Shown piece after piece: positions 3,480-48,699 of a stretch of DNA of 64,000 bases (within the stretch, counting starts at the first letter, position 1; each line of letters opens with the position of its first letter). The notes below the pieces were generated by a model. The model made no database searches, was not told the DNA's origin, and saw only the letters and a program-made list of their open reading frames with translations. The DNA is from Dehalococcoidia bacterium. Lineage in GTDB: Bacteria; Chloroflexota; Dehalococcoidia; UBA2979. Made by a program: the position numbers and the translations under genes. Location: positions 1,477,256-1,541,255 of the forward strand of contig OZ253555.1 in NCBI GenBank assembly GCA_965262725.1, read 5' to 3'.

Positions 3480-4143
3480 GCCGTATCAGCATCCGTGGCG
3501 ACCCGCCCAAGGCGCAAGCAGATCCTCACTCTGGACCGCCGCCTGGAGTGTCGCCGAGTTGGTAGGTCTGTCTTCGTTAACGTAGAGGGCGCCGGTGATG
3601 ATGCTGCAATCCCATTCTGTCGGGCGTTGCCGTCGGCAGCCCCGGCGCCGCGCTGACGTCCAGCCGTCTCGCGCACATACTCTAGTCGGGCGCGGTCGCA
3701 TCGAGAGCCGGCGCACCGTCCGCGGAGGCCTGAAGGGATGACGGGCGCGCTCAGGAGCGCCCTGTTGTACGCCGCGGAGCCGTAGGGGCGGACGTCCCGC
3801 GGCGGGAGGGGCCGACGACTGCGAGGCGCACCCGGCGCCACGCGCCGCGGCCGGTGAGTGCCGCCCACGCCTGCGAGGGCGAGTCAGGTTCGGAATCGCG
3901 ACCCTCCGTCACCTGCGTGGTCGCCGGGTTGGTCAGCGCGATCGTGACTCTCGTGCCGTCGTTGTCGGTAACGGTGACCGCCGCGGAGCCGGGCGTCCCT
4001 CCCGCGCCGTGTCCGGGTCGCGTTCCAGCCACACGCCCCCGTCCGAGGTCGTGATTCGCCCCATGCCGCGGGGCTTGACCAACTGATCGAGTGCGATGGT
4101 CAGGTTCGCCGAATCGGGGTGTTCGGGTGCGGGAGATGGGATC

Positions 4144-7281
<3,138 letters not shown>

Positions 7282-7356
7282 TCCCGCCGCCTGACGCTCG
7301 CGACCAGGGTCTGCGCGCGATCAAGCACACTCAGGATCCGCATCACGGTCTCAGAC

Positions 7357-8349
7357 TTACTCGTCGCGACCTGTGTCGCGGTGGGTCACGCGTATCTCAC
7401 CTGACATGATGCGCGGTAGCACCAAGTCCCGACCACCGGCCAACGTGCGCGAGAGTTCCGAACTCGAATCTGACGATGCATAGAGGGGATCGGCTAGGTT
7501 CGCGAAACCAAGGAGTACAGACTCAGGTGGGACCACCACTGGTTGTGTCTTGAGATCCCGCTGGGTTATCAGTGGCTGAGTTGAACCGCGGTTCAAGTTA
7601 GACAGGTCCATTTCGCGGACGACTCCAAAGAGCCAGGCGAACTCGGGGTTGCCTCTGGGAATGATGACTAGCGTGTTATCTGACGGCCACACAGGGAAGT
7701 TGACACGGTGTACGACCCCGAGAGTGCCGACGCGTCCCGTGATTATGATGGGGAAGTCAAAGCGCGCGTCCGTGGTGTACGCCATTGCTCCCGCGCCCCC
7801 GAAGACAGGGACGTCGGCCTCGACCCCAGGGCACGAATGCCGTTGCTCCGGTCGCTTCCCACTGAAGATGTCAGCCACGTCGCCCAGCGTTTTCGCCTCC
7901 CACCCCGCCGGTATCTCCCCCAGCTCTGATGTCTCGAACGATGCGGGGAACAGCGCGTCGAGGTTGGGAAGGAGGCCCGAGGACCGACCCTCGGCCTTCG
8001 CGCGCACTGGGTCGAAGTCCACGAACCACGACCGAAACAGCGACCGCGCCATCTCTTCGAGGGTCTCGCTCATGCGCCGGTTCATCTCGATCCGGTCGTC
8101 GAGCGCGCCGAGCACGCGCGCGATGGCGCGCTGCTCGGCGAGGGGCGGGAGGGGGAGTTCGACGAGGCCGATGTCCGCCTTCCTCAGTCCGAATCGGGTC
8201 ACACCGTTCGCGTATGCGTGAAACTGCTGCTGTACTCCTCGTGTCTTGAGCGTATAGAAGAGATATGTGCCGTCGATCTCCCGCTTGGCGCGGAGGATCG
8301 CGAGATGGTAGCCACACAGGAGGTTCGGGAGATTCTCCCGTACCAGTGC
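7357..8349 (-). pseudogene. hsdS: hsdS 3' fragment (conserved central region, second target-recognition domain and C-terminus). Separated from its 5' part by an IS5-family insertion.
   Basis: The 7357..8202 track ORF extends in-frame up to a stop at 8482-8484. From codon A(8349-8347) onward it reads LVRENLPNLLCGYHLAILRAKREIDGTYLFYTLKT...GLVELPLPPLAEQRAIARVLGALDDRIE, the canonical HsdS TRD end plus conserved spacer. Sequence 8350-8481 in the same frame is IS-derived read-through. Confidence 0.85.
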
Positions 8350-9565
8350 TGGAACCCCTATGTCGTCATGCGCCTCCGAGTCCTTAGGGCAAGTCTGGAC
8401 AAGTGGGTCTGGCGGCGCAAAACGGGCGCGAGGAGCGCTTCTCGCGGGCGGGTTCGATGAAGTGAGCCATGTTCGGCCCTCTCAGGGCCCCTGCGGCTTC
8501 CCGTCCTCGCCTCTCTGGGGCGAGGTGGGCACACTCCACCCACGGTCAGGCACAGTGCGGCTTTGCGGTGAGCAGATTATGGACCCCCAGCAAGACCGCA
8601 CACCGCTCGTGGTTCTTGAAGAGGCCCCGGTACCGCACCTTGGCGTAGTCGAAGCGCCGCTTCACCGTATAGAACGGGTGCTCCACCAGCGCCCGCGCCG
8701 ACGCCTTCCGTTTCTCCTCGACGGCCTCAGGACTCTCCGGGTCGAGCTGACGCCGTAGGCCCGGGCGCATCGCCACGTTCCAGTTGTCGACCCCCGAGTC
8801 CGCGTTCTCGGGTCGCTTGTCCACGCCCCGGTATCCGGCATCGCCGTAGACTTCGGCTTCCTCGCCGTGCAGCAGACGGTACGTCTCCGACACGTCCGAC
8901 ACGTTCGCAGGCGTCGTCGTGAAGCTGTGGACCAGGCCCGTGTCCCTGTCCGCGCCGATGTGCAGCTTCATCCCGAAATACCACTGGTTGCCCTTCTTGG
9001 TCTGATGCATCTCGGGGTCCCGCGCCCGCTCGCGATTCTGCGTCGACGACGGCGCCGAGATGATGGTCGCGTCCACGATGCTGCCCTCGCTCAGCTTCAA
9101 TCCCTCGCTCGCAAGGTGCTCGTTGATGAGCTCGAAGATCCTGCTCCCCAGGGAGTGGCGCTCGAGCAGGTGACGGAATGTGAGGATGGTCGTCTCGTCG
9201 GGGATCGGCCCGCGCAGGGTGAGGTGGCAGAAGGCTCGCACCGACTCGGCCTCGTGGAGGAGGTCCTCCGTGCCGGGGTCGCTGAGGTTGTAGCAGAGCT
9301 GCACGATGTGGATGCGCAGCATCACGGAGAGAGGGTAGGGCCTCCGCCCGCGGCCGGGTTTCGGGTAGTGGGGCCCGATGGCTGCTTCGAACCTCTCCCA
9401 CGGGACGAGGCCGTCCAGCCGCTCGAGGAACTTCTGGCGGCGCGTCGTGTAGCCATCCTGCTCGAACTCGACCCTGGCGAATGTGGGCTGATGCATGGCA
9501 CGCTCCCATCCCTGTTACGCGTCAGGATCTCACCTGATCAGCAGAGTGCGCAATACTCTGCTGTC
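8350..9565 (-). mobile_element. IS5-family (IS5-group) insertion sequence, 1216 bp, inserted into hsdS with a 4-bp target duplication GTGC (8346-8349 and 9566-9569).
   Basis: Joining the flanks after removing one GTGC copy restores an uninterrupted HsdS reading ...GDVIITKGALGKLA|LVRENLP... The transposase ATG lies 70 nt from the right end, as in IS5. No clear terminal inverted repeats could be found by eye. Confidence 0.8.
8546..9496 (-). CDS. IS5-family DDE transposase (InsH-like), 316 aa.
   Basis: RRPYPLSVMLRIHIVQLCYNLSD, DATIISAPSSTQN, KKGNQWYFGMKLHIGADRDTGLVHSFTTTPANVSD and C-terminal KRRFDYAKVRYRGLFKN parallel IS5 InsH. Confidence 0.9.
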   Translation of the reverse strand: MHQPTFARVEFEQDGYTTRRQKFLERLDGLVPWERFEAAIGPHYPKPGRGRRPYPLSVMLRIHIVQLCYNLSDPGTEDLLHEAESVRAFCHLTLRGPIPDETTILTFRHLLERHSLGSRIFELINEHLASEGLKLSEGSIVDATIISAPSSTQNRERARDPEMHQTKKGNQWYFGMKLHIGADRDTGLVHSFTTTPANVSDVSETYRLLHGEEAEVYGDAGYRGVDKRPENADSGVDNWNVAMRPGLRRQLDPESPEAVEEKRKASARALVEHPFYTVKRRFDYAKVRYRGLFKNHERCAVLLGVHNLLTAKPHCA

Positions 9566-10130
9566 GTGCCAACTTTCCCAGAGCTCCCTTAGTGATGATC
9601 ACATCGCCCTCGTAGAGAGAGCACCTGCTGATCTCGCGATCGGTAGCGGTCGCGGGCATGAAGGCCATGTCCGCATAGATGAAGTCGTAGTTATACACGT
9701 CCGTGTAGTTGCAGAGCAGAACCGGACGCTCGCCGGCCTTCGACTTCTTGTCGACACTGCTGAGCGTGAGTTCCACGACCTCGCCGAGAGCCACCGCCGG
9801 CCACTCAGCGTCCCGTGGAGCTTCCTGCATCACTACGCAGTCCGACTCGATCGCCTCACGGAAGCCGTCCGCGATGGAGTGCCAGTCGACCACGTCCACC
9901 CGCATGGGCAGCCGGGACTCTTCGAAGGCCTCCTTGAGCCGAGCGAGAGCCCCGCGTGGTAGCGGCCCCTCACCGACGACGGCCAGGTCGAGGTCCGAGT
10001 AGTCCTTCGCGTTCCAGATCGCCCGGGATCCGAATGCTCGCACCTCGCACGCCGGCACATGCTCGGCCAGGATGCGCGCGACGATCGCCAGATCGGGGGG
10101 GCTGAGGTCAACCGAGACCTTCACTCCCAC
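9522..10130 (-). CDS. Minimal nucleotidyltransferase (MNT/MntA-like antitoxin, aa 1-100) reading in-frame, without a stop, into the hsdS 5' fragment (HsdS aa 1-88; first TRD N-terminus), then into IS-derived sequence up to the stop at 9522.
   Basis: NTase motif AFGSRAIWNAKDYSDLDLAVVGEG. From M101 (ATG 9830-9828) it reads MQEAPRDAEWPAVALGEVVEL...GDVIITKGALGKLA, a typical HsdS N-terminus with the GDxLxxxxGxxGK TRD motif. The HsdS part ends at 9567; codons 9566-9525 come from the IS. Confidence 0.7.
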   Translation of the reverse strand: MGVKVSVDLSPPDLAIVARILAEHVPACEVRAFGSRAIWNAKDYSDLDLAVVGEGPLPRGALARLKEAFEESRLPMRVDVVDWHSIADGFREAIESDCVVMQEAPRDAEWPAVALGEVVELTLSSVDKKSKAGERPVLLCNYTDVYNYDFIYADMAFMPATATDREISRCSLYEGDVIITKGALGKLARQQSIAHSADQVRS

Positions 10131-10543
10131 GCCTCTCCGGTAAGAGCCCCGTGGAGCTGGACGGCGTCCGACACGAACTCCGGCATGACCGCGATGGCAT
10201 TCGCCGCCTTCGCCCTGTCGTAGTCATGGGTCGTGTCGATCCGTGTCTGGATGTAGCGCTCCCACTGCCGACCCCCGGCCGCCAGGAGACCGTTCTCGTC
10301 AGCCATCCGGAAGACAGGCCTAGGGCTGTTGGGAACCTCGACGATGCCGAGCGACTCGACCAGATGGCGCCGGAGCACCTTCCACAGCACGTCGTAGCAA
10401 GTCTCGAAGCGCTGAATCACCGACTCGGCCATGGCCTCGTGGACGAACGACGGATAGTCCGGCGACAGATGCAGCAGGTGCGCGTGCTGCATCTCCAGGT
10501 TCTTCAGTGACTTCCGGAAGTTTCCGTAGTCGATCGCCATCTT
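10121..10543 (-). CDS. HEPN-domain protein (nucleotidyltransferase substrate-binding / HepT-like toxin family), partner of the downstream MNT.
   Basis: Rx4HxY HEPN motif RIDTTHDYD. Overlaps the MNT start by 10 nt, a typical toxin-antitoxin operon arrangement. Likely start is the ATG at 10543 (MAIDYGNF...); the track ORF begins 13 codons further upstream. Confidence 0.7.
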   Translation of the reverse strand, partial: KMAIDYGNFRKSLKNLEMQHAHLLHLSPDYPSFVHEAMAESVIQRFETCYDVLWKVLRRHLVESLGIVEVPNSPRPVFRMADENGLLAAGGRQWERYIQTRIDTTHDYDRAKAANAIAVMPEFVSDAVQLHGALTGEAWE

Positions 10544-10627
10544 GTTTGCGCCGCCTCTGGTCCGATCCGCCTCGACCGCCATTCTAGGACCCGGAGCGCG
10601 GGGCGGTGATGACGCGGCCCCTCCGTA

Positions 10628-12225
<1,598 letters not shown>

Positions 12226-12229
<4 letters not shown>

Positions 12230-12462
12230 CGCACCTCACCGCCCTCGGCGCGCCACTTCGCCACCTCATGTCTGGCGCTCTTGCCCCCGGGGCCGTAGCC
12301 GTACCTAATCAGGAACTCAGGAACGCCGCCATACTCGATCGAGATGACGGCGGACTCAGCGGTCTTGTCGTGGCCGGGCAGGAAGAAGGAGCCGATCGTC
12401 GTCTCGGCACCGCAACCGCACCAACACTCACCAGTCGGCAGCAGGCGTTCTGATGAGGCCAC
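12226..12462 (-). CDS. Small Cys-rich hypothetical protein (78 aa), translationally coupled to hsdM (ATGA overlap).
   Basis: [22 protein letters not shown] looks like a zinc-ribbon-like cluster. The stop overlaps the hsdM start by 4 nt. Confidence 0.5.
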
Positions 12463-12916
12463 TCGGGTTGTCTCCTCCGGGAAAGGTCTGCCTCAGCAGT
12501 CTTGGACGATGCCCAAGGATATGCTTCTGGATCAGGGTCGTCCAAGGCAGCGAGCGATCGTGTGCGGGCCGGTCGCGGTCGTCGTCGAGGTCGCGGCGCA
12601 GCGCCTGATGAGCACGCTTGAAGCCAGCCGTGAAGCATCCCTCGGCCGTCAACACCCGATGGGCGGCTCACTCCCGGCAACGGGAAACCTGACCGCCCAC
12701 GCCGCAGTCCGACGCGTCCCGCCCCATGGCGGATCGATGCTCGGCGCACCGCCGCGGAGCTTGCTCGCATGTCGGTCGATGTGATCAGCTGCGCTCAAGA
12801 AGACGCGAACGACGCACCGCCGCGGCGCGCCCCCCGGCAGGTGGCGAGATTCTCGCCACCCCCCTCGACGGCCTGCTAGCATCAGCGCCTGCTCGACATC
12901 CCCCCGGGAGGCGGCG

Positions 12917-14920
12917 ATGGTTCTCTGGGCGATCATTCCCGGCCGGGGCGGGGAGTACGAGGCGGACTTCCTCGAACACCAGCACGTCGGGGTCGGCTAC
13001 GGGTACGAGCAGGATCTCCGGGCGGTCGCGTCCAGGGACGAGCTGAGGGACGAACACGACGAGGGCCCCGACTCGCTCTGGCGCTTCTACGCGGAGCTGG
13101 AGACGGGTGCGCTGGTGGCGGTGCCGTTCACCGGGTCGCGAGTCTACGTGGGCGAAATCACCGGGGACTACGAGTTCCGGCGGGATGTCGCCCCCTACCA
13201 CATCCGCACCGTGCAGTGGTGGGCGGAGGACATACCGGACGGCGAGCTCGACAGCGACCTCTTCCATTCAATCAGGAGCGAGCAGGCCGTGCACCGCGTG
13301 CAGGTGCCCGGCGCGGAGCAGCGAGTGCGCAGGCTGGCGTGGGGCCGGATCGACTCCTGGCTCGAGCGGGCACAGGCGTTCACCGGGTCCGGGAAGCTGG
13401 ACGCCGACGAGATGGCGTACAAGCGCGAGATCATCGCGGCCCTCCGCCGGGCGCGCGACGCCGTGATCTCAGGCGACGGCGACTGGCCCGCGCTGATCAG
13501 GACGGCGATAGGCGTCCCCGGAAGTCCCATGGACTGGCGCGCCGGGCAGCCGCTCTACGCCTGGTTTGCGTCCGAGCCCGCGAGCGCGCGTGCCGCGATG
13601 CGTGCCTTCTGGGCGAATGACGAGACGCCGCTCGGGGAGCGTATCCGCGCCCTCGTCCGCCGCATCCCCGAGACCGGCGGGTTCACGAAGTCGCAGGTAG
13701 GGACGACGCTCCGGCCGGTTGCGGCCCTGCTGATGGCGCTGGGGCCCGAGTTCCCGCCCTTCGCGAGATACTCGTTCGACGAGGCCTACAAGCTCACGCG
13801 CTATCCGCGCTCGCGCGCGGGCGCGGACCAGGGGGCGATGTACGAGCACGCGCTGGGCTTCCTCGACCGGCTCGTCGAGCGCGCTGGCGAGCTGGGCTAC
13901 GAACGTCCTGCGGACCGCCTTGAGGCGCAATCAATCGTGTGGATGATGCGCGACGATCAGGGGGAGGAGGACGAACGCCGACCAACGCCTCCGGGCACGC
14001 GCGCGGAACCCGTATGCGATCTGGATGCGCTGGCGGGCGAACTCCTGCTGCCTGCCGCCTTCCTGCGGACGATCGAGCGATTGCTGGCCGACGCGCGCAA
14101 GCCGCAGGTCATCTTTCAGGGACCACCGGGGACGGGAAAGACCTACGTCGCGCGGAAGCTGGCGGAGTGCCTGGCCGGCGCGCCGGATCGCGTGCGGCTC
14201 GTCCAGTTTCACCCCTCGTATGCCTATGAGGACTTCGTGCAGGGCTACCGGCCGGTAGTCGACGCGGAGGGCCGCGCGGGCTTCCGCCTGCGGGACGGGC
14301 CGCTGGTGCAAATGGCGAAGCGCGCGCTGGCCGACCATGCGCACGGCCTCACGACGAAGTACTTCCTGGTCGTCGACGAGATCAACCGAGGGAACCTCGC
14401 CAAGGTGCTGGGCGAGCTCTACTTCCTGCTTGAGTACCGGAACGAGACAATCGAACTTCAGTACTCCGCCGAGCCCTTCGCGCTGCCTCCGAACCTACAC
14501 ATCATCGGCACGATGAACACCGCCGACCGTTCGATCGCGCTGGTCGATCTCGCACTTCGCCGCCGCTTCCACTTCGTCGAGTTCCATCTCGACAGGAAGC
14601 CCGTCAAGGGCCTGCTGAGGAGGTGGCTCGAGGCGAACGCGGGCGGCATGGAGTGGGTCGCCGACGTCGTCGACCTCGCCAACGAGAAGCTCGCGAACAG
14701 GGACGCCGCCATCGGCCCGAGCTACTTCATGCGGGAGGGGATCGATGAGGAGCAGGTCAGACTCGTCTGGAAGCATGACGCTCCGGCGGCGATTCGACAT
14801 CCCCCTGCCAGTCGACGTGCGCTACGACGACTTCACGGACGACATCACCGCCAACCGGCTGGTGAAGGCAGCATGCGCGCGTCTCGGGGGGATGCGCATC
14901 GGGGACCGCCGGTCACGTGA
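12917..14920 (+). CDS. mcrB: McrB-like GTPase (AAA+ motor of a modification-dependent McrBC restriction system) with a ~330-aa uncharacterised N-terminal domain. The 3' end is probably aberrant.
   Basis: VIFQGPPGTGKTYVARKLA (Walker A). FHPSYAYEDFVQGYRP. YFLVVDEINRGNLAKVLGELYFLLEYR (Walker B / McrB signature). NLHIIGTMNTADRSIALVDLALRRRFHFVEF. After IGPSYFMREG the last ~45 codons become Arg/Pro/His-rich and overlap mcrC by 176 nt. Confidence 0.85.
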   Translation: MVLWAIIPGRGGEYEADFLEHQHVGVGYGYEQDLRAVASRDELRDEHDEGPDSLWRFYAELETGALVAVPFTGSRVYVGEITGDYEFRRDVAPYHIRTVQWWAEDIPDGELDSDLFHSIRSEQAVHRVQVPGAEQRVRRLAWGRIDSWLERAQAFTGSGKLDADEMAYKREIIAALRRARDAVISGDGDWPALIRTAIGVPGSPMDWRAGQPLYAWFASEPASARAAMRAFWANDETPLGERIRALVRRIPETGGFTKSQVGTTLRPVAALLMALGPEFPPFARYSFDEAYKLTRYPRSRAGADQGAMYEHALGFLDRLVERAGELGYERPADRLEAQSIVWMMRDDQGEEDERRPTPPGTRAEPVCDLDALAGELLLPAAFLRTIERLLADARKPQVIFQGPPGTGKTYVARKLAECLAGAPDRVRLVQFHPSYAYEDFVQGYRPVVDAEGRAGFRLRDGPLVQMAKRALADHAHGLTTKYFLVVDEINRGNLAKVLGELYFLLEYRNETIELQYSAEPFALPPNLHIIGTMNTADRSIALVDLALRRRFHFVEFHLDRKPVKGLLRRWLEANAGGMEWVADVVDLANEKLANRDAAIGPSYFMREGIDEEQVRLVWKHDAPAAIRHPPASRRALRRLHGRHHRQPAGEGSMRASRGDAHRGPPVT

Positions 14921-15572
14921 GGGCCTTCGCCGCGTCGAGGCGACGCTCGCGAACGTCGCCCTGGTGCCGTTCAGTCCGCGCGACGTACCGGCCGTCGCGT
15001 TCGACCGGCTGAACGAGCACTACCGCGAGGTCGTGGACCTGTCGCGGCTCATCCTGCGCCACTGGACCCTCGAGGCGGTGCGCGGAGATGTGCGAGCATC
15101 CGGCTTCCTCATGGACATGAATGTCGTCTTTCAGCAGTTCGTGACGCGTGCGCTGCGGAGCGAGCTCCGCCTCTCGGAGCGAGCGTTCCGCTCGGACAGC
15201 CGCGCCGCCGGGACGTTCGACACGACGGGGCGAAGGCAGATTAAGCCCGACTTCTCTTGGTGGCTGGGTGCGCAATGCGTGTTCGCCGGGGATGCAAAGT
15301 ACAAGCGGGCGGATGACGGGCGCGTCCCCAGCGCCGACCTGTACCAAGCGCTCGCCTATGCGACCGCGCTCAATATCCCCGGCGCATTGCTGGCCTACGC
15401 CGAGGGCGCGCCCGAGGTGTACGACGTGCGCCACTCCAGCAAGCGGCTGGAGGTGGCAACGGTGAGCCTCGCCGGGACGATCGATGACCTGCGAGCCTCC
15501 ATCGTGGGGCTCGCGGAGCGCGTCCGCCGCTTGCGTGCCAAAACGCTGCGTCAGCGGCGCCGCGCAGCTTAG
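14745..15572 (+). CDS. mcrC: McrC-like nuclease subunit (PD-(D/E)xK). It appears N-terminally truncated relative to canonical McrC (~350-450 aa).
   Basis: DDITANRLVKAACARL aligns with E. coli McrC EDTLANRIIKSTLAIL (~residue 105 there, residue ~35 here). LMDMNVVFQQFV and the catalytic IKPDFSWW...VFAGDAKYK (D...D-x-K) are present. The start is uncertain (ATG at 14745 or 14775). Confidence 0.75.
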   Translation: MRSRSDSSGSMTLRRRFDIPLPVDVRYDDFTDDITANRLVKAACARLGGMRIGDRRSREGLRRVEATLANVALVPFSPRDVPAVAFDRLNEHYREVVDLSRLILRHWTLEAVRGDVRASGFLMDMNVVFQQFVTRALRSELRLSERAFRSDSRAAGTFDTTGRRQIKPDFSWWLGAQCVFAGDAKYKRADDGRVPSADLYQALAYATALNIPGALLAYAEGAPEVYDVRHSSKRLEVATVSLAGTIDDLRASIVGLAERVRRLRAKTLRQRRRAA

Positions 15573-19670: not shown

Positions 19671-19920
19671 CGGCGTGAGAGCGAGATCATACGCCCGGCC
19701 GCGCGGGCGGCACACCAAGGGGAGGGCTCCTCCGCGCCTCCCTCGCCGGTGCGCGTGCGGCAGGGGTGAGCAGCCGGCGCTGCGCCCGGGCGAGCGAGAG
19801 GAGGCGGGCGGCCGCGGTCGCCCGCCCGCCGTACACGCCCCGGCGAGGCGCCGGCTGAGCCGCCCGCTCCGCGGGCCGGGCACCGCGCGTCGGCTGCCCC
19901 GCTCACGTCCCGATCCCCCG

Positions 19921-19968
19921 CCCGTGCCGGTGCCCGTGCCGGTGCCCGTGCCCGTGCCCGTGCCCGTG
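19921..19968. repeat. Tandem hexanucleotide repeat (CCSGTG) x8, immediately 5' of / overlapping the extended KAP NTPase reading frame.
   Basis: cccgtg ccggtg cccgtg ccggtg cccgtg cccgtg cccgtg cccgtg, read directly. On the minus strand it is in-frame and encodes (GT)8. Confidence 0.9.
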
Positions 19969-20119
19969 CCGCGAAGCCTCAACGGCGCCGGAGGACGTGG
20001 CGACCCCGTCCGTCTCAGGGCGTGCGAGGGGAGGGGACGTCACAACCGACCGCGCAGCCGGCGCGTCGGCCGGCTAGACCCAAGCCGGCTGCCGGTCCAG
20101 GGACGAGCGGCGAACTGCC

Positions 20120-20942: not shown

Positions 20943-22523
20943 ATGGCCTACCGGGAGGTACACGGGGTGGAGATCCAGGAGATCATTCGACGCTGGCAGG
21001 CGGGGCTCAGCCAGCGCCGCATCGCCAGCGGGATGGGGTTGTCGCGTCAGACGGTCCGCCGCTACATCGACGCGGCCGAAGCGGCCGGCCTCACACCTGA
21101 CGGTCCCGAGCCGAGTGAGGAGCAGCTCGCCGCGCTGGCGACGCTGAGCCTCTCCGGCCCGCGGCAGGTCGAGGCGCCGAGCGAAGAGCTGCTCTCGCCC
21201 TGGGCGGAGCAGATCGAGCGCTGGCTTGAGACCGACCGCCTGCAACTGACGCGCATCCAGGAGCTCCTCGCCGGACGAGGCTGCGAGGTCTCCTACACCA
21301 CGCTGCGGCGTTTCATCCGGCGCCGCGGCTGGCGCCACCGGCTGCCGTCGACCGTGCGCATGGACGACGGGCCGCCGGGCGAGGTGGCGGAGATGGACTT
21401 CGGCCGCCTCGGCTTCATCCGGGACCCCGAGAGCGGCCGCCGGCGCGCGGTGTGGGCGCTGGTCGTCGTCTGGCGCTACTCACGCCACTGCTTTGTGTGG
21501 CCCACCACCAGCCAGACGCTGGACGCTGTGATCGAGGGCCTGGAGGAGGCCTGGGCCTTCTTCGGGGGCGTGCCGCGCTACCTCGTCATCGATAACTTCC
21601 CGGCCGCCGTCGCCGGGGCCGACGCGCTGCACCCGCGCTTCACGCGGGGCTTCCTCGAGTACGCCCGCCACAGAGGCTTCATCACCGACCCCGCGCGCGT
21701 GCGTCATCCCCGCGACAAGCCGCGCGTCGAGCGCAGCATCCCCTACGTGCGCGAGCGCCTCTTCAAGGGCGGCGACTTCCGGGACGTCGTCGACCTGCGC
21801 TCCGCCGCCCGCAGCTGGTGCCTGGAGGTGGCGGGACAGCGCATCCACGGCACGACCCGCCGCCGGCCGCTCGAGGTCTTCCGGGAGGAGGAGCTCCCTC
21901 TCCTCGCTCCCTGGGACGGCGAGCCCTACGAGGTCCCCGACTGGCGGACCGCCACGGTCCATCCCGACCACCACATCGCCTGCCAGTACGCGCTGTACTC
22001 GGTGCCGTCCACGGCCTGCCCGCCCCGCCAGAAGGTCGAGGTGCAGCTCGGCTCGAAGCTGGTGCGCATCTACCACCGCGGTCAGCTCATCAAGGTCCAC
22101 CCGCGCCAGCGCCGGGGCGGCCGCGCCACCGACCCGAACGACTACCCGGCCGAGCTCACCCCCTACACCAGGCGGGCGCCCGACTGGATACAGCGCCGCG
22201 CCGCCGAGCTGGGGGAGGCCGTGGGCGCCTACGCCGAGCGTCTCTTCGAGGGCTCCCTGCCCTGGGCGAAGCTCCGGCAGGGCCACAAGCTGCTGCGCCT
22301 CGCCGAGCGCTACTCCCCGGACCGCCTCGACGCCGCCTGCCGCCGCGCGCTCGAGGTCGACCTCATCGACGTGCGCCGCCTCGAGCGCATCCTCGTCCGC
22401 GCCCTCGACCAGGAGAGCACCCCAGACCAGCCCGAGCTGCCGCCTCCTCCGGGGCGCTTCGCCCGCTCGGGCTCCGTCTTCGCCCAGTCCCGCACGCAGA
22501 CCCCGACAGGAGCACCACGATGA
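20943..22523 (+). CDS. istA: IS21-family transposase IstA (HTH plus DDE integrase core), 526 aa.
   Basis: N-terminal HTH (LSQRRIASGMGLSRQTVRRYI). rve-type catalytic region. IstA-typical length and IstA-IstB ATGA overlap. Confidence 0.9.
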   Translation: MAYREVHGVEIQEIIRRWQAGLSQRRIASGMGLSRQTVRRYIDAAEAAGLTPDGPEPSEEQLAALATLSLSGPRQVEAPSEELLSPWAEQIERWLETDRLQLTRIQELLAGRGCEVSYTTLRRFIRRRGWRHRLPSTVRMDDGPPGEVAEMDFGRLGFIRDPESGRRRAVWALVVVWRYSRHCFVWPTTSQTLDAVIEGLEEAWAFFGGVPRYLVIDNFPAAVAGADALHPRFTRGFLEYARHRGFITDPARVRHPRDKPRVERSIPYVRERLFKGGDFRDVVDLRSAARSWCLEVAGQRIHGTTRRRPLEVFREEELPLLAPWDGEPYEVPDWRTATVHPDHHIACQYALYSVPSTACPPRQKVEVQLGSKLVRIYHRGQLIKVHPRQRRGGRATDPNDYPAELTPYTRRAPDWIQRRAAELGEAVGAYAERLFEGSLPWAKLRQGHKLLRLAERYSPDRLDAACRRALEVDLIDVRRLERILVRALDQESTPDQPELPPPPGRFARSGSVFAQSRTQTPTGAPR

Positions 22524-23852: not shown

Positions 23853-26558
23853 GTGACGAGTCTGCTGCGGCTTCTCGATCCGAACGAGCCTGACTCGGCG
23901 GCGCGAGCTGCCGGGGCTGTCGCCGCCCTGCTCGACCGCCTGCCGTCACCACGCTCAATCGCCGAACTTCGTCTCGGGCCGGAGGACGTTGAGTGGCTGC
24001 GAGTGTGGGCGGGCGGGATGTCCGCTGCAGCGGCGAGGTGGAGCGGCGACCGGCGGCTCCTGGGCGACCTGGGGGCCGCGCGCCAGCAGGCGTTCGGGCT
24101 GGTCTTCCTCGCACTCGCGGCTGAGACGGCGCGGCGGGATGCGGCCGAGGGGCACGTGTGGGGCCCCGTCCGGCGCCGCGTATCCAGCGCGGCCGCCTCG
24201 ATGCTCTTCAGTCAGGGGCAACCGAAGCAAGCGCTCAAGGACGCGCTGGAGTCCGCGTGCAGGCGCTGGCAGTTGCGGCATGTCTTTGGAGAGGAAGGCC
24301 TGCAAGCCTGGTACGCCTCGGTCTACCTTCAGTTCGGGTTCACGGAACGGACCATCGAGTCGCGACTGCCGGCGCGGCTTGCGAATGCCGAAGCGCTGCC
24401 CATAGCGGTTCACCACCTGCTCCACGACCGGAGACTGAAGTCCGACTCGTTCGCGTCCCTCTGGAACACCCTTATCGGTGTGCGCCGTCGCAACGTATCG
24501 GACTTGAGAGCCCGCCAAGTGCTTGCGGGGAGCCCGTGGATTCTGCCGGAGTGGACTGACGCGCTCCTCGAGGCTGCCGTGGCGCGCATGGAGTTGACGC
24601 CGTCGGGCCTGTCCGATGAAGAGGTTGCGCCCTCGCTCTTCACCGTTCCGCGTCTGGAGTGGGTCGGTCAGCAACCGCGCTTCATCGCCGAACTGGTCAA
24701 CCTTGCCGACGTCGCCGGCGAGTTGGAGCCGGGTGCCTACCGATTGCGGGCCGGCACGGTCAGCGTGGAGTTCACGATCGACGACCTCGGCACCCCTCAC
24801 GGCCTGCGCCCGGTGGGACTTCCACTGTGGCCAGCCCGGCTCACCGCCACAGTTGAGCAGCACCACGGTGAGGACTCATGGGATCCCGTCGCTGGCGAAG
24901 AGATGGTCCTGTGGGAACCCTCCGACGAAGTCGCCGCCTTCCGCGACGACGGGTTCCCGCTGGACGCCTGGAGCACCGCGCTGCACCCAAATCAGCCCTA
25001 CACACTCGTGCTTGCACCGGGACTCGACGTCAAGCCCGTCCAAGACCGTTGGGCGCATGCGGATGGATGCCTCGCGGTCCAGTTGCCGGCTGGCTGGGCG
25101 GAGGATACGGGCGTGTACCTCGATGGCGAGAGAATCTGGGATCCGCTCGTCACCGCCGATGGCCAGAAGACGCTTGCTGGGCTGTCTATGCCTCCCGCTG
25201 GCACGAGGCTGGGTGAAGCACCGAGGATTCAGTTGTTCGGCCTGTCGGAGCGGGTCACTGAAGTAAAGGCCGATCGGCGTGCAGTGGCCTTCGAGCAGCA
25301 CGGGGGGAGCATCGAAGCGTTCCTTTCCCCCGGCGAGCACGCCGCCCGCCCCTCCGTGCTCGTCCGCACCAAAGACGCAAGCGGAGAGGTTAGGGCGGGG
25401 CGGATTCAGCTCACCTGGTTCGGGGCCCAGCACCTTCGCCCGTACGGCTGGGCGCCGTTCCCGGTCGGTGTGATCGATGAGCGCGATCTCGGTCAGCGCA
25501 TCCGCGCGTTCGCGCCGGAGTGGCGTGAGCCGACATTGCTGGTTGGCAACCGTCCGATCGGGCGGATCGGCAGCCGCGGTCGAGCACGGGGCTCGGTGGG
25601 AGCGTGGGGCGCGCCGCTTCTCATCGCCGATGGGCAGTTCAATCGCGAGCCCGACCGCCAACTGCTGCTGGCCGATGCCATCACGTCTCGCGGCGTCATC
25701 CTGGACATGAACGATGACGACTTCGGAGGCGCGGCCCTGGTCACCCTCCGGCAGCCCGTCAACCTCGGCGAGGTCAGAGTCTTCGGCATCGATCGCGGCG
25801 GCGCTGTCGACGACATCCGGCCCACCCCAACGGGTGAGCGGTCGTGGGTGATCGAGGTGCCTCCAGAGAACGCCCTGGCGATCGTCTACGGGGAGGAATG
25901 GATTGGGGGGTGGTGGTGGCGGCCCCCCGTACCGCCCCAGTCGGCCGAAGGTGCCGTTCACCTGATAAGGCTGCTGCGCGACGCGCGGGCTCCGCTGCTC
26001 TCGCGTGACTATGGCGGTTGGGCGCGGGGAGCGCTGCGCGCGCACCCCGCCAGCGCGCTCGTCTGGCTCTTCAACCTCAGCGAAGCTGGAACGCTCTCCG
26101 CCGCGCCGCCGGAATCAGACGACTTCGCTCCAGTGGTTCGCGACCTGCTCGACGGATGGGAGCCGGACCACATATGCGTCGCTCACCTTGCCCGAACTCT
26201 GCGTGACTCAAGCGAGGAGTTCATCGAAGGGCTCGCCGACACTGCTCTGCGAGCGCCGGGCCCGACCGCACGCCTGCTCAGTTCAGTCTTCGAGGACTCG
26301 GGGCTCCGGCGGCGTGTCCGCGGAGCCCTCCTTGAGGCGCTTGGTTGGGGAGACGCATCGAGCGCCGGCGTGCTCAATGAGATCGGATGGCAGTTCGATG
26401 TGGACAGCGGGTTCCTTGAACGTCTCGGGCGGTTAGCGAACGATGGGTTGCGCGGGCAACCGATTCCCCGCGTGCAGCGGCAGAATCTGCTCGTGGCGAT
26501 GAACCTGAGCGGCGACTTTCGGCGGTGGCTCGCCGGACGCCTGATCTCGGAGGACTGA
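23853..26558 (+). CDS. druH: Large (901 aa) protein with no recognisable domain: a DruH-like partner of the downstream DUF1998 helicase (Druantia type III-like architecture).
   Basis: GTG start at 23853, stop at 26558. Composition is non-repetitive and Trp-rich. No known motifs were recognised. The stop lies 4 nt before the SD/GTG of the next gene. Confidence 0.8.
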   Translation: MTSLLRLLDPNEPDSAARAAGAVAALLDRLPSPRSIAELRLGPEDVEWLRVWAGGMSAAAARWSGDRRLLGDLGAARQQAFGLVFLALAAETARRDAAEGHVWGPVRRRVSSAAASMLFSQGQPKQALKDALESACRRWQLRHVFGEEGLQAWYASVYLQFGFTERTIESRLPARLANAEALPIAVHHLLHDRRLKSDSFASLWNTLIGVRRRNVSDLRARQVLAGSPWILPEWTDALLEAAVARMELTPSGLSDEEVAPSLFTVPRLEWVGQQPRFIAELVNLADVAGELEPGAYRLRAGTVSVEFTIDDLGTPHGLRPVGLPLWPARLTATVEQHHGEDSWDPVAGEEMVLWEPSDEVAAFRDDGFPLDAWSTALHPNQPYTLVLAPGLDVKPVQDRWAHADGCLAVQLPAGWAEDTGVYLDGERIWDPLVTADGQKTLAGLSMPPAGTRLGEAPRIQLFGLSERVTEVKADRRAVAFEQHGGSIEAFLSPGEHAARPSVLVRTKDASGEVRAGRIQLTWFGAQHLRPYGWAPFPVGVIDERDLGQRIRAFAPEWREPTLLVGNRPIGRIGSRGRARGSVGAWGAPLLIADGQFNREPDRQLLLADAITSRGVILDMNDDDFGGAALVTLRQPVNLGEVRVFGIDRGGAVDDIRPTPTGERSWVIEVPPENALAIVYGEEWIGGWWWRPPVPPQSAEGAVHLIRLLRDARAPLLSRDYGGWARGALRAHPASALVWLFNLSEAGTLSAAPPESDDFAPVVRDLLDGWEPDHICVAHLARTLRDSSEEFIEGLADTALRAPGPTARLLSSVFEDSGLRRRVRGALLEALGWGDASSAGVLNEIGWQFDVDSGFLERLGRLANDGLRGQPIPRVQRQNLLVAMNLSGDFRRWLAGRLISED

Positions 26559-26562
26559 CGTA

Positions 26563-29500
26563 GTGCCGGGGAAGCTGGACTCACTCGGGCTCGCGGAGTC
26601 GCTGCGGCGACGAATGGCCGACTTCGCGTCGGCGGACCTGTACGTGACGGACCCCGAGATTCAGCGCGCCGCCGGGGCCGTATGGGAGGACGAGGAGTCG
26701 GGGCTGGTTGGCGAACTGTGGGTCGAGGGGATCATGCCGCCAATGCCCGGTCAGCGCCTACAGAAGATCGCGGAAGCGGGCGGGTTCGACCAAGACTTGC
26801 TCGGGCGCCTGACGGAGTCTGGCGCTTGGGGCGACTGGCGGCTTCACGAGCACCAGGAGCGCGCCATTCGCGCTGCCTCGAGCGATCTAGGCGGCGCCGT
26901 CATGGTTTCTGCGGGCACTGGCGCTGGGAAGACGGAGAGCTTCCTGTTGCCGCTCGTCGACCGGCTGTGGAGCGCGCCTCGCCGCGGTTCCGGCATGCGC
27001 GCGCTCATCCTCTACCCCATGAACGCTCTCGTCCGTGACCAGATGGATCGCCTTGATGCGTGGCTTGGCGGTCAGTCCCGGCTCACCTATTTCCACTTCA
27101 CGAGCGAGACACCCGAGACTGAGTCCGAGGCGGACCGGCGTGGGATAGCGAAGCAGTTCGCGAGCCGCGTTCGATCGCGGGACGAAGCGCGGCGCGCTCC
27201 TCCCGACATCTGCGTGACGAACTACTCGATGCTCGAGTACATGCTCGCTAGGCCGCAGGACGCACCATTCTTCGGCGAGGGGCTCGAGGTCGTCGTCCTC
27301 GATGAGGCGCACCTCTACACGGGGACGCTCGCGAGCGAGATCATGTTCCTGCTGCGCCGGGTGCTGCTCCGCTGCGGACTGACCGCGACGGACATCCTGC
27401 ACCTCGCAACGTCGGCGACGCTCGGCGGCGACGACGACGAACTGCGGGCGTTCCTCTCCCAGCTCACGGCCACGCCGCCCGGGCGCGCCTGCGTCATCCG
27501 GGGGCGACCTCAGCCGTCCGCGCCGCTGCCTGCGTCAGGCAGCGACCAACGTGCCGGAGCACTCGTGCAGCTCGATGGTAGGCTCCCTTCCAACGCTGGT
27601 GGGACCGATGTGTTGTCAATACTGGGGGCGGAGACTGACGACGACTCCGACGCGCCGATCGTGCTTGGTCGGCGGTTGGCGGACTGGCCCGCCACGGAGC
27701 GCCTGCGGTCCGCCCTGCACGCCGAGCCTGGAGTGCCACACCTTCTAGTCGAACTCGCCGAGAAGGTGTGGCCTCACGGCGGCAAATCGAATGTCGCTGC
27801 CACCGCCGCTCTGCTGCGCTGGACGTCAATAGCTCAATCGGGGCCGGACGCTCCGCTGCTCGCGCATCGGCTGCATCTGCCGCTGCGCGGCCCTGGCGGG
27901 TTGGGCCTCTGCCTCAACGGCGACTGCTCAGGCCCCGAGGAACGGCAGAAGACCGGATGCGGCGCTGTCCAGGATGCCCGTGGCGACCGATGCCGCTGGT
28001 GTTCCTCTGTCGTCCTGCCGATCGCGCGCTGCGAGGGCTGCGGGCTCGTGGTGCTCACCGCGCGGCAGCAACACGCGAGATTCGTGCCGGAACCCGTTCC
28101 TGGTCGCGGTACGAGGCGAACCGCGATGGAAGTGCGCGGCTTACTGCTCGGGTTCGCCGACCCTGCACCGGGGGCGGTGGAAGTGCTCCCGGACGGTTCG
28201 GTGGGAGGCGGAGGCGTGCGCCTGCGCCCCCTGCCGCCGCTCGATGCTGACACGCCGTACGAGACGGGCTGCGCACACGAATTATTCGAGCCGCTCGCGC
28301 GCGGCGCCGGGTTGCTGCTGAGCGTGATCGCCGAGACATCTCTCGCCGCTATGCCGCCGGACAGCGACCCCGATCGCGCCCGCACGCGGCCCGCCGGGGG
28401 CAGGCGGCTGCTGGTGTTCAGTGACAGCCGCCGGGAGGCTGCCCGGCTCGGGCCGGCGCTCACCTGGGGCCATGAGGTGCAGCTAGTTCGGGCGGAGATC
28501 CTGCGGCTGATGGACGCTGCATCCCCGGACGATGTGTCTGCAACCCGCGAGTACCTCAAGTCTGACATTGCTCGCCTGCAGAATCTGCTGGAGCGGGATC
28601 CCCCATCATCGACGCGCCAACTCATCGAGCGGGACTTGGCTGACCGGGTGACGGACCTACGGGCGCACATCCTGGGCGGGCCCATGCACGACTGGGAGCG
28701 CGCCTTGGCCCGTTCGGACAAGCTCGCTGAGATCCTGTCGTTTGACGGGGCGAGCATCCACCGGCGGGCCGAGTGGAGTGACGAGTCGTGGAGCGAGAAT
28801 CACCGGGCGAACGGCAGGCGCGCCCGCGCGTTGCTGGCGCGTGAGTTCGTCGCCCCACCCGGTCGGAGCGCCGGCGCGTCGCTCGAGGCGCTGGGGCTGG
28901 CGCTCGTGGACTATCCGGAGCTGCGTGAACTGCCGCCGCCAACGCTCGGCCAGTTGCCGAGTACGATCCGCGAGCGTGCGGTCGAACAGTGGCCCCAGTT
29001 CGTCGCAGCCCTGCTCGACTCGCTTCGCGTTGACGGCGGGATTACAACGGGCGAACAGGAACTCGACGACTACTACTCCGAGGACCATGCGCCGATCGGA
29101 AAGTGGATCAGCTTCGAAGGCCCGGACCGGCGCGACCGCGCCCGGTTCCGCGGCGCCACCTCGCGGCACAGGCGGAATGCCTTCCTCATCCGATTGCTGC
29201 TCGACTTCGGCGCGACGGGCGAGCAGCTGGATGAGTTCGAGCCGTTGCTGGCGCGCGCCGCCTTCGACTGGTTGCGAACCGCGGAGCCACGCCCCGAGTG
29301 GCTGGAGCGCCACCAGACCGAGCCCTGGTTCCGCGTGCGGTTCCCCGATCTCGCGCTGCGCAGGCCGGACGAGGTCTGGCTGGACGAGAGCCGCCTCATC
29401 GTCGGGTTCGTAGTGAATGGCCGCCATCCGCGGGGAACCGGCCGCTTCGTGCAGCGGAGGCAATCCGAGCTTGACGCCGATCCCCGCTTCCAGCGCCTGC

Positions 29501-37383: not shown

Positions 37384-39018
37384 TCAGCGTGCCGTCGACA
37401 CCGCAGCGGTGACGGCGGTTGTGGTGGTGTGCGACGCGTTCTCGGCAGACCGCGGAGCGCGGGAGCGCCCGCCCGGCGACGTGCCGGGCCATCGGGAATC
37501 ACCCGAGAGCAGCGCATCGTAGCCATCGAGGAGCGGGGCAGGTCGGTCGTAGCGCTCCAGGTGCGGTCTCTCGACGGCGGCGTCTGGTGGCCTGCGGTCG
37601 GCGAGACGGCGCGCCTCGATGGCGACCAGTTCGGGGTTCACCGACTGGATCCTGTTGACCGTCCCGAGCGCGGCGTGCACCGCCGTGAAGGGAAGATGGC
37701 GATGCAGGAGCAGGACCTCGATGTACGCCTGCGTGCCCGCGCGGTCGCCGAGCTTGCGGCGGGCGCGGTCCCAGAAGCGCTGATGCTCGGCTGTGACGTG
37801 TCCCTTCGCACGCGCCTGCTGGAGCGCCACCGAGCCCGGGACCGCCCCGGGCTTGCGCGCGAGCACCTCCAGATAGTGGTCGAGCAGCAGGACCTCTGCT
37901 CCGGTGCGGGCGCTGCGCTCGTGGTGGGCGACTTCACGCCCCTCGGCCCACACGGTCAGGCTGTTCCCGGACAGCCGCACGTCCAGCTTCCGGCCTGCAT
38001 AGGCCGCCGGGACCGAGTAGCGGGAGCTACGCACGGCGATGCGCGCCTTGCGGTCGACCTTCGCGCGCAGCGGGATTGACGGGTCGAAGCGCTCCGCCGG
38101 AAGCGGACGCAGCGAGGCCTTCTCGTTCTCTCCCATCTCGCCGACGGTGGCGAGGCGGCTCTCGATGTGCCGGGCGTCGTCGGTGCGGTCCGCCTCCCGC
38201 ACTCGTTCGTTCAGCTCGCCGAGGGTCGCCACCTTCGGGACCGGCACGAAGTGCCGCCGGCGGAAGCGGCCGACCTCGCCCTCCACACCGCCCTTCTCGT
38301 GCGCGCCCTCGATGCCGGGCTCACAGAAGAAGCTGTCGAAGCCGTAATGCGAGCGGAGCGCGATGAAGCGCTCGGTCTGCAGGCGCTCGCGTCCCTGCAG
38401 CACGGTGGTGACGGCCGCCGTCAGATTGTCGTAGCGGATGCGCCGCGGCACTCCGCCGAGCCGCTCGAAGGCGACCACGTGCCCCTCGAGCAGAGACTCC
38501 TGGCCCTCGCCGACGAAGCAGACGTGCGCCGCCCGCCCCGAATGCGAGAGCCGCATCACGAACATCGCCAGCCGGGTCTCGACGCCCTCCAGCCACACCG
38601 TCACCGTGCCGAAGTCGACCTCCGCCTCCTCGCCGGGAGGATGGACCTGCGGGATCGTCACAACCGCGCGCCCGCCCTGGATCTCGCGACGCAGGCGCGC
38701 GACGCAGGCGCGGACCGTGGGCTCGGCCACCGTCGCCCCGTGTTCGTCGACGAGGCGCTCCCAGATGCGCCGGGCCGTGTGCCGCTGCTTGCGCGGCGCG
38801 CTGAGGTCGTCCACGAGCCAGCCCCGGATGACCGAGACGTACGGCCCGAGCTTCGGGGCCACGCGGGTCGCCTGCTTGCGTTCCGGGGGTATCGCCGACC
38901 CAAGAGCCTGCCGCACCGTGCGCCGGTGCACGCCATGCCGGCGTCCCAGCTCATGGATCGACAGCTCCTCCTCCCTCGCCATCCGTCGGATAGACTCGAA
39001 CAGCTCCACTCTCGACAC
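37384..39018 (-). CDS. istA: IS21-family IstA transposase, 544 aa.
   Basis: N-terminal HTH (LSIHELGRRHGVHRRTVRQAL), DDE integrase core, IstA length. Confidence 0.9.
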   Translation of the reverse strand: MSRVELFESIRRMAREEELSIHELGRRHGVHRRTVRQALGSAIPPERKQATRVAPKLGPYVSVIRGWLVDDLSAPRKQRHTARRIWERLVDEHGATVAEPTVRACVARLRREIQGGRAVVTIPQVHPPGEEAEVDFGTVTVWLEGVETRLAMFVMRLSHSGRAAHVCFVGEGQESLLEGHVVAFERLGGVPRRIRYDNLTAAVTTVLQGRERLQTERFIALRSHYGFDSFFCEPGIEGAHEKGGVEGEVGRFRRRHFVPVPKVATLGELNERVREADRTDDARHIESRLATVGEMGENEKASLRPLPAERFDPSIPLRAKVDRKARIAVRSSRYSVPAAYAGRKLDVRLSGNSLTVWAEGREVAHHERSARTGAEVLLLDHYLEVLARKPGAVPGSVALQQARAKGHVTAEHQRFWDRARRKLGDRAGTQAYIEVLLLHRHLPFTAVHAALGTVNRIQSVNPELVAIEARRLADRRPPDAAVERPHLERYDRPAPLLDGYDALLSGDSRWPGTSPGGRSRAPRSAENASHTTTTAVTAAVSTAR

Positions 39019-47730: not shown

Positions 47731-48699
47731 CCCTACTACGGCTTCTCGCATGGCTTCAGGCCGGGGCGTTCGGCGCATGACGCGCTGGACGCACTGGCCT
47801 ACGCGGTCGAACGGCGCAAGGTCAGCTGGATTGTCGAGGTGGACATCCGGGAGTTCTTCGGCAGCATCGACCGGGGGCGGCTGATGTCGTTTCTGGAGAT
47901 GCGCATCGGGGACCAGCGGGTGTTGCGCCTGATACGAAAGTGGCTGAGCGTCGGCGTCATGGACGCGGAGCCGGAAGTCGATTTCGTGCGGGGGATGCCG
48001 CAGGGGGCGCCGATATCGCCGCTGCTTGCGAACGTGTACCTGCACAACGTGCTCGACGACTGGTTTGCGCGCGAGTGGCGACCGCGGGAGGTCCGGGGCG
48101 AGGCGTACATCGTGCGGTATGCCGATGACTTCGTCCTGGGGTTCCAGCACCGCAGCGATGCGGTGCGGTTCATGGAGGCACTCCGGGAGCGGTTCGCGGC
48201 CTACGGGCTGGAGCTGCACCCGGAGAAGACCCGTCTACTTGAGTTCGGCAGGTTCGCGCTGGCGAACAGGCGGAAGCGCGGGGAGGGCCGACCGGAAACG
48301 TTCGACTTTCTCGGCATGACGCACTACTGCCGGACCCGACGCGACGGGAGATTCGGGCTGGGGCGCAAGCCCGTTGCGAAGCGGATGCGCCGGACGCTGA
48401 AGGCCATCAAGGCCGAGTTGTGGCGGCGCATGCACGACAACCCCGTGACGACGGGGCAGTGGCTGGGGCGGGTACTGCGTGGGTGGCTTGGCTACTACGC
48501 GGTGCCGACCAGCTCGCCGGCGCTCACGCGGTTTGTCCGTTTCGTGAAGCGGCTCTGGCTGCGCGTTCTCCGACGGCGGTCGCAGCGCGACCGTTTCACG
48601 TGGGAGCGCATCCTTGCCCTGTGCCAGGGACACTGGCCCCGAATCTCCATCCTTCACCCGTGGCCTGCGGAGCGATTTGCCGTCACGCACTTGAGGTAG
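47731..48699 (+). pseudogene. Group II intron reverse transcriptase/maturase, C-terminal part (RT domains 2b-7 and X domain).
   Basis: The in-frame reading from 47731 gives PYYGFSHGFRPGRSAHDALDALAYAVERRKVSWIVEVDIREFFGSIDRGRLM..., then PQGAPISPLLANVYLH and YIVRYADDFVLGF (YADD). The maturase region is WLRGWLGYYA. The track ORF lists it from the GTG at 47839. Confidence 0.85.

Follow-up and report, generated by a model that had tools for sequence, protein, structure and literature searches.

An IS5-group insertion sequence splits an MNT-hsdS fusion gene in a Type I restriction-modification operon of a Dehalococcoidia bacterium

We analysed a 64,000-nucleotide (nt) stretch of DNA from a Dehalococcoidia bacterium (GenBank assembly GCA_965262725.1, contig OZ253555.1, positions 1,477,256 to 1,541,255 of the forward strand), here called the window; all positions are given in the coordinates of this 64-kb stretch. 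On its minus strand, which is the gene strand throughout, lies a Type I restriction-modification (R-M) operon with the order 78-amino-acid (aa) open reading frame (ORF), hsdM, HEPN gene, MNT::hsdS and hsdR. The MNT::hsdS gene encodes an MNT domain fused to the specificity subunit HsdS. The results showed that an IS5-group insertion sequence (IS) of 1201 bp lies at 8388..9588, within the part of this gene that encodes the first target recognition domain (TRD1), that it is flanked by a duplicated CTAA, and that removal of the IS with one copy of the duplication restores the reading frame. The whole explanation, in which this insertion leaves the system most likely negative for both restriction and modification (r- m-), is in our judgement very probable.

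Boundaries of the insertion and the restored gene

We compared the two pieces of hsdS with a family profile of 119 HsdS homologues. The 5' fragment covered profile positions 4-182 and the 3' fragment positions 182-520, the latter with 494 bits against the family hidden Markov model (HMM), and both alignments met at a Lys codon that spans the duplication (9590-9588 and 8385-8383). The native 5' part ends ...DVIITK, with its Lys codon at 9590-9588, and the native 3' part restarts as DSEAHDD... from 8382 downward, with 8383 as the last base of the Lys codon that the insertion splits. An earlier note on this DNA had ended the 5' fragment with ...TKGALGKLA at 9567 and resumed the 3' fragment with LVRENLPNLL at 8349. 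The 'GALGKLA' of the first reading is read-through into the terminal repeat of the IS, and the second reading begins 12 codons after the native resumption: the segment 8350-8387 is hsdS coding sequence and encodes DSEAHDDIGVPA.

In-silico excision of 8388..9588 together with one CTAA, checked against HsdS homologues, gave an open gene that reads in frame ...EGDVIITKDSEAHDDIGVPALVRENLPNLLCGYHLAILR..., with the restored junction …ITK-DSEAHDDIGVPA-LVRE…. The homologues P0003 and P0007 read ...GDVIITKDSEAHDDIGVPALVRE... and are identical to the restored protein through ITKDSEAHDDIGVPALVRE. The pattern TKDSE..DIGVPA was present in 114 of 120 HsdS homologues, and TK and CGYH were separated by 22 residues in every homologue in which the spacing could be measured (113/113), as they are in the restored protein. 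The restored fusion protein has 520 aa from GTG 10124, or 422 aa from the internal ATG 9830, the start used in the earlier note, which had expected a canonical HsdS of about 418 aa. As the DNA stands, no single HsdS with two TRDs is encoded, the gene being split at TRD1 by 1205 extra bases, while the product after excision contains two Methylase_S stretches and covers profile positions 4-520. Two broader statements of the earlier note agree with these results: an IS5-family element does split hsdS, as seen from Pfam, from the NCBIfam NF033581 match of its transposase (299.7 bits) and from the profile break inside the gene, and the two pieces are collinear and are joined in frame by the correct excision.

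The boundaries were equally clear at the DNA level. On the gene strand, the first junction reads ...GAT CAT CAC TAA followed directly by GGGAGCTCTGGGAAAGTTGGCAC..., and the second reads ...CACTTGTCCAGACTTGCC followed directly by CTAA GGA CTC GGA..., with CTAA flanking the IS at 9592-9589 and 8387-8384. We also compared ten sister copies of the IS (L083-L092), whose DNA is 98.6-99.1% identical to the IS in the window. They start GGGAGCTCTGGGAAAGT(C/T)GGCA and end ...CTTGTCCAGACTTGCC, their flanks are unrelated, and their ends match 8388 and 9588 exactly. A perfect CTAG duplication flanks nine of the ten. The segment 9566-9588 recurs, save for one base, in all ten copies with their unrelated flanks and is therefore the IS's own terminal repeat, not HsdS. 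The terminal inverted repeats are imperfect, and a generic repeat finder run on 8250-9700 did not include them among the 25 longest pairs listed, because only 70% of their positions match. They were spotted by eye and then confirmed by comparison of the flanks and by the sister copies; a sequence search found the right terminal repeat once in the window.

These results bear directly on the model of the earlier note, in which the IS spans 8350..9565 (1216 bp), GTGC is the duplicated target, the break falls between ...TKGALGKLA and LVRENL..., and excision restores an HsdS of about 418 aa. GTGC does occur at both 8346-8349 and 9566-9569, and the join made there is in frame, which is probably why it was convincing, the frame being kept by chance. 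However, chance alone would be expected to place some shared 4-mer close to two junctions, and this one is coincidental. The protein that results from this join has lost 12 conserved residues and gained 7 that the IS encodes; 9566-9588 belongs to the terminal repeat found in ten sister copies, and 8350-8383 encodes the conserved DSEAHDDIGVPA. The spacing from TK to CGYH is then 17 residues instead of 22, and the N-terminal 140-aa region scores 224.5 bits against the family profile, compared with 266.1 bits after excision of 8388..9588, a difference of 41.6 bits. In addition, GTGC is not an IS5 target and CTAA is: among 24 IS5 targets in the ISfinder list, CTAG accounts for 15, CTAA for 3 and TTAG for 3 (PMC5493358, Table 3). 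The GTGC junction was ruled out by the sister-copy ends, the profile break points and the homologue spacing, and we give this model virtually no chance. The coordinates of the IS and of the operon are listed in Table 1.

Table 1. Features of the interrupted Type I operon in window coordinates
Feature	Position	Strand	Details
IS5-group insertion sequence	8388..9588	-	1201 bp; ends at exactly these positions in ten sister copies; transposase co-oriented with the operon
Target-site duplication, right copy	8384..8387		TTAG on the plus strand, CTAA on the gene strand; same 4-mer at 9589-9592
Target-site duplication, left copy	9589..9592		Identical 4-mer to 8384-8387
Right terminal inverted repeat	8388..8407		GGCAAGTCTGGACAAGTGGG read inward; agrees with the left repeat at 14 of the first 20 positions
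Left terminal inverted repeat	9569..9588		GGGAGCTCTGGGAAAGTTGG on the gene strand; encodes 'GALGKL'
Transposase gene, intact	8546..9496	-	316 aa; DUF772 + DDE_Tnp_1 (positions 5-200 of 200); NF033581
hsdR, intact	4144..7281	-	1045 aa; HSDR_N, SWI2_SNF2/ResIII, T1R_D3-like and T1RH-like_C, full length; TIGR00348 564.5 bits
hsdS 3' part	7357..8383	-	C-terminal part of TRD1 (from DSEAHDDIGVPALVRE...), central helix, TRD2, C-terminal helix, stop; Pfam Methylase_S
MNT::hsdS 5' part	9589..10124	-	MNT, about residues 1-100 (GSX10DXD), and the first ~79 residues of TRD1
HEPN (HepT-like) gene	10121..10540	-	139 aa from ATG 10540 (153 aa from 10582); Pfam NTase_sub_bind 66 bits
hsdM, intact	10628..12229	-	533 aa; HsdM_N + N6_Mtase 340 bits
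78-aa ORF	12226..12462	-	Overlaps the hsdM start; gene at the same position in L081, L093 and L094; no Pfam match

The insertion sequence and its relatives

We assigned the IS by its transposase, its ends and its target. The transposase carries the Pfam domains of an IS5-type DDE transposase and matched NF033581, 'IS5 family transposase', over positions 1-284 of 285, far above the cut-off of 140 bits. The same protein, residue for residue, is encoded at at least nine other loci with different neighbours in related assemblies, so that copies of the element lie at unrelated loci. Like members of the IS5 group, it falls within about 1.1-1.3 kb, ends in short imperfect terminal inverted repeats and is flanked by a 4-bp duplication of the form YTAR (CTAG, CTAA or TTAG). 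The IS is an unnamed IS5-group element by every character of the group that could be checked. No second copy of it was found within the window when up to three mismatches were allowed at either end.

More distant members of the group were consistent with this assignment. Relatives with transposases 52-68% identical are multi-copy in several genomes and measure 1169-1245 bp. They share homologous ends, GGAAGCTCTGAACAAG... and ...CTTGTTCAGACCTTCC (GG...CC), and are flanked by 4-bp duplications of CTAG, CTAA, TTAG or TTAA. In a transposase scan of species-representative genomes, a set without the source genome, the nearest elements were 62-68% identical. Plasmid-borne IS5-family transposases were 52-56% identical. 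The IS of the window therefore resembles IS5 of Escherichia coli and its group in its length of about 1.2 kb, its single DDE transposase (DUF772 + DDE_Tnp_1, NF033581), its imperfect terminal repeats of about 16-20 bp starting with GG, its duplicated 4-bp YTAR target (here CTAA) and its many genomic copies. Like IS5, for which rare precise excision is on record, it inactivates a gene by inserting into it (PMC5493358). It differs in the sequence of its terminal repeats and in its transposase, at the identities just given. Under the usual identity conventions, it would presumably warrant a new IS name.

Two of the sister copies, at L085 and L089, lie in near-identical palindromic flanks, with tcaggacaCTAG on one side of the IS and CTAGtgtcctga on the other. 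Both adjoin a gene for a 536-aa transposase with DUF772 and DDE_Tnp_1 domains, which suggests that these copies may have inserted into the terminal repeat of another element.

The insertion in hsdS looks recent and the IS looks active, because the duplication is perfect, both halves of hsdS are undamaged, hsdM, hsdR and the HEPN gene are intact, and the sister copies are nearly identical. No lesions were seen in hsdM, hsdR, the HEPN gene or the MNT domain, and hsdM, hsdR and the HEPN gene, all of full length, share about 95% identity with their orthologues. Reversion by precise excision would be possible in principle. We considered whether insertion and precise excision of the IS form a selected on/off switch, that is, a phase variation of the R-M system. 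There is precedent for precise excision of IS5 and for reversible switching by IS elements (PMC5493358), the gene has no other damage, and the IS is multi-copy as well as apparently active. However, excision would have only a 4-bp direct repeat to work with, nothing marks the target CTAA as a hotspot, and the window is littered with IS elements, as random hits would give; such hits are expected because the region, from Pfam searches of its larger ORFs, is a patchwork of defence genes and mobile elements. Moreover, searches for an empty-site allele with these TRDs were negative: among 5.8 billion protein clusters the best full-length HsdS hit reached 60% identity, with nothing closer that carried both TRDs, and none of the JGI metagenome contigs matched the restored 22-nt junction exactly. 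A selected switch is accordingly a very doubtful account of this locus. Two orthologous loci, L093 and L094, were ruled out as true empty sites, their hsdS genes being intact but carrying other TRDs.

Consequences for restriction and modification

We then examined what the interrupted gene can still encode. The present fusion ORF gives a 200-aa product made of 179 native residues and 21 residues encoded by the IS, with its stop at 9522-9524. Downstream, the hsdS frame is open from 8481, inside the IS, and its first ATG, GTG or TTG is GTG 8202. This start gives a 281-aa ORF (P0001), which is publicly annotated as a separate 'subunit S'. No Shine-Dalgarno-like sequence was found in the 15 nt upstream of GTG 8202. 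A promoter and terminator scan found nothing in the IS and no promoter-like site for the 281-aa ORF, and the predicted RNA fold at the 3' end of the IS was no better than that of shuffled sequences (z = -0.27); both results are uninformative on polarity.

These data fit a simple course of events. The IS would have transposed into a CTAA within TRD1 of the MNT-HsdS fusion gene and duplicated it, and the cell would be left with a 200-aa stump of MNT and partial TRD1 and, at best, a truncated piece of 281 aa. Assembly of the M2S methyltransferase, and likewise of the R2M2S nuclease, starts from an S subunit with two TRDs, and both activities need this subunit (PMC3874165). With no such subunit, neither M2S nor R2M2S would be expected to assemble on a bipartite site. 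On established Type I biology, restriction and modification are most likely both lost: no two-TRD HsdS is made, which most likely renders the system r- m-. The other parts of the system are in place, with HsdM an N6-adenine methyltransferase carrying HsdM_N and HsdR combining a nuclease with an SF2 motor. The MNT domain is complete upstream of the break, so that its antitoxin-like half would be retained beside an apparently functional HEPN gene, and with it, presumably, its antitoxin function.

Some points weigh against this explanation. The search for a second hsdS with the family HMM, in six frames, covered only the 64-kb window and found the two fragments alone; Pfam likewise found no other Methylase_S in 28 larger ORFs of the window. 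The 281-aa ORF retains TRD2 with the helices on either side of it, central and C-terminal, and an N-terminally deleted EcoDXXI HsdS is active as a homodimer (PMC3874165). Finally, the separately assembled 11.4-kb metagenomic contig L081, which has the same junctions, may come from a sample related to that of the window and so may not be independent of it.

The second of these points leads to an explanation in which the system is not silent. A half-size HsdS of 281 aa would combine with HsdM and HsdR, and a new, probably palindromic site defined by TRD2 alone would be methylated and restricted. Both the hsdS::Tn5 mutant of EcoDXXI and an engineered N-terminal deletion are active with palindromic specificity (PMC3874165). 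The 3' ORF is open and undamaged here, and read-through transcription is conceivable, the transposase gene being co-oriented with the operon. On the other hand, the sole in-frame start, GTG 8202, lacks both a Shine-Dalgarno-like sequence and a promoter-like site, and both helices lie on the one fragment and would tend to pair intramolecularly, which would leave a single TRD. In addition, HsdS is normally an MNT fusion coupled to translation of the HEPN gene, and this coupling is lost. The comparison with known truncations points the same way. In hsdS::Tn5 of EcoDXXI and in EcoR124I HsdS(delta50), as in the window, the break lies inside one TRD and spares the other, together with a dimerisation helix (PMC3874165). 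Those truncations keep the N-terminal TRD and their own start and form active homodimers, whereas the break in the window is in the N-terminal TRD and the start is lost. Activity of the TRD2 piece is unlikely, because both the start and the upstream translational coupling are gone, and we regard a functional half-size HsdS as improbable.

Contig L081 also bears on the possibility of an assembly artefact, in which a multi-copy IS was misplaced into hsdS and the real gene is intact. Repeats are a classic source of misjoins, and this IS is multi-copy in related assemblies. However, exact IS ends, flanked by two identical copies of a canonical 4-bp IS5 target, would not arise from a misjoin. The same junctions are present in L081, which is 99.98% identical to 3793..15201 of the window and differs only by two indels in an McrB-like gene, and the searches of protein clusters and JGI metagenome contigs described above gave no uninterrupted allele with these TRDs. 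An artefact is unlikely, and we put its chance very low. Loss of both restriction and modification through the insertion thus remained the reading that we favour.

The MNT-HsdS fusion, its HEPN partner and the surrounding window

The earlier note had described a canonical HsdS of about 418 aa whose 5' fragment is fused behind MNT; this fusion is the conserved normal state of the gene. The MNT domain matches Pfam Polbeta/NTP_transf_2, and residues 5-110 of the fusion are a full-length homologue of HI0073 (PDB 1NO5, E 4e-23), the rest of the protein matching solved HsdS structures. A nucleotidyltransferase (NTase) Pfam domain is present on the same polypeptide in about 68 of the 120 best HsdS homologues, more than 100 residues precede the first HsdS motif in 65 of 104, and the annotation sources label the NTase-bearing homologues simply 'restriction endonuclease subunit S'. 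At all six fused loci compared (the window, L082, L093, L094, L095 and L096), the gene directly ahead of the fusion encodes a PF08780 HEPN protein, and its stop codon overlaps the start codon of the fusion; in the window, the fusion start GTG 10124 overlaps the HEPN stop codon as GTGA, the corresponding overlap in L094 being ATGA. At both unfused loci (L097 and L098), hsdS follows hsdM directly, without HEPN or MNT. A description of an MNT-HsdS fusion was not found in the papers searched, a limited search that is no proof of novelty.

The orthologous loci L093 and L094 encode uninterrupted MNT-HsdS proteins of 511 and 526 aa. Their DNA is 94-95% identical to the window over hsdM-HEPN-MNT (12600..9820) and over hsdR (7280..4025), with protein identities of 95.3-95.5% for HsdM and 94.6-94.8% over 1045 aa for HsdR. 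The homology extends precisely to the MNT/HsdS boundary (about 9820); past it, TRD1 and TRD2 are both different. Such an alignment is typical of TRD exchange on a conserved operon backbone, and it indicates that at least three specificities probably circulate on one backbone in related populations. The TRD regions compared were 9820..7357 in the window, L093:10408-11641 and L094:10410-11686. Both L093 and L094 have an extra gene between hsdS and hsdR. In the HEPN gene of L093 (9690-10109), the motif reads RIDTTHDC: the residue that corresponds to the AMPylated Tyr of HepT is Cys, and it is still Tyr in the window and in L094. The 78-aa ORF ahead of hsdM carries a CxCGC motif.

HEPN RX4HXY together with MNT GSX10DXD is the signature pair of the HepT/MntA type VII toxin-antitoxin system (PMC7641770). 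Both motifs are present in the window, as RIDTTHDY in the HEPN gene and as GSRAIWNAKDYSDLD in the MNT domain. Both proteins passed their Pfam domain cut-offs and fell below those of the curated families (NF047752 MntA, 28.8 against 60 bits; TIGR01987 HI0074, 45.9 against 55.8 bits). As in HepT/MntA (SO_3166/SO_3165 and HI0074/HI0073), a PF08780 HEPN with RX4HXY has an MNT with GSX10DXD as its neighbour, and the stop codon of one gene overlaps the start codon of the other. Unlike in those systems, the toxin gene comes first, the pair lies between hsdM and hsdS, and MNT is fused to the N-terminus of HsdS; at all six fused loci the HEPN gene precedes a fused MNT, and a stand-alone MNT antitoxin gene upstream of it is lacking.

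The position of the HEPN gene recalls PrrC-EcoPrrI, in which a HEPN RNase gene also lies within an hsdMSR operon (PMC3710099). By analogy, the HEPN gene of the window may serve as a back-up suicide function tied to the R-M complex. PrrC is an ABC-ATPase-HEPN protein restrained by the R-M complex itself, whereas the HEPN here is small and HepT-like and its MNT partner is covalently part of HsdS; the arrangement suggests a physical link between toxin-antitoxin and R-M functions that would be only loosely analogous. In this Type I family, a HepT-like HEPN and an MntA-like MNT thus sit together as one unit between hsdM and hsdS. We offer tentatively, as a possibility rather than an expectation, that the fusion could tie neutralisation of the toxin physically to the R-M complex.

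Outside the operon, the window holds further defence and mobile genes. An ArdC-like anti-restriction protein (ArdcN + zincin peptidase) is encoded at 590-1822, upstream of the R-M operon. At 12917-15572, an McrB-like AAA_5 ORF (667 aa) overlaps an McrC-like ORF by 176 nt. The latter matches only PF10117 positions 105-317 and may be N-terminally truncated or frameshifted. The two indels that separate L081 from the window are compensating 1-nt changes at 13528 and 13822 in the McrB-like gene, which is called as a split gene in L081. A hexanucleotide repeat, (GCCCGT) x 8.5, lies at 19920-19970 in the 5' end of a 947-aa KAP-family NTPase ORF, where it encodes (Gly-Thr)n, and could be prone to slippage. 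At 23853-31686, a 901-aa ORF without a Pfam match precedes a 1707-aa DEAD/Helicase_C/MZB (DUF1998-type) helicase, possibly as another defence system. Mobile-element ORFs are located at 20943-22523, 37384-39018, 39145-40335, 45581-46645, 47839-48699 and 51572-52714; they comprise two IS21-like (rve/Mu-transpos_C_2), an IS110-family and an IS630-like DDE_3 transposase, an IS5-family transposase of 354 aa that differs from the one in hsdS, and a group II intron-type reverse transcriptase.

The knockout of a restriction specificity gene by an IS is a familiar, routine event. Here a defence system has apparently been knocked out by a multi-copy IS that looks active, and bacteria commonly lose restriction barriers in this way. 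The proteins annotated as a 200-aa 'nucleotidyltransferase' and a 281-aa 'subunit S' are the halves of one IS-disrupted MNT::hsdS gene, and the correct boundaries allow the 520-aa allele to be rebuilt for specificity prediction or expression. The MNT-HsdS fusion, and not the IS, is the more interesting and more unusual feature of the locus. If it does couple toxin neutralisation to the R-M complex, then loss, titration or phage inhibition of the complex would release the RNase as a second line of defence or an addiction device, and the IS would have been tolerated here only because it inserted downstream of the complete MNT domain. Together with TRD swapping, the HEPN/MNT-HsdS arrangement would offer a compact natural system for asking whether toxin-antitoxin and Type I functions are mechanically coupled.

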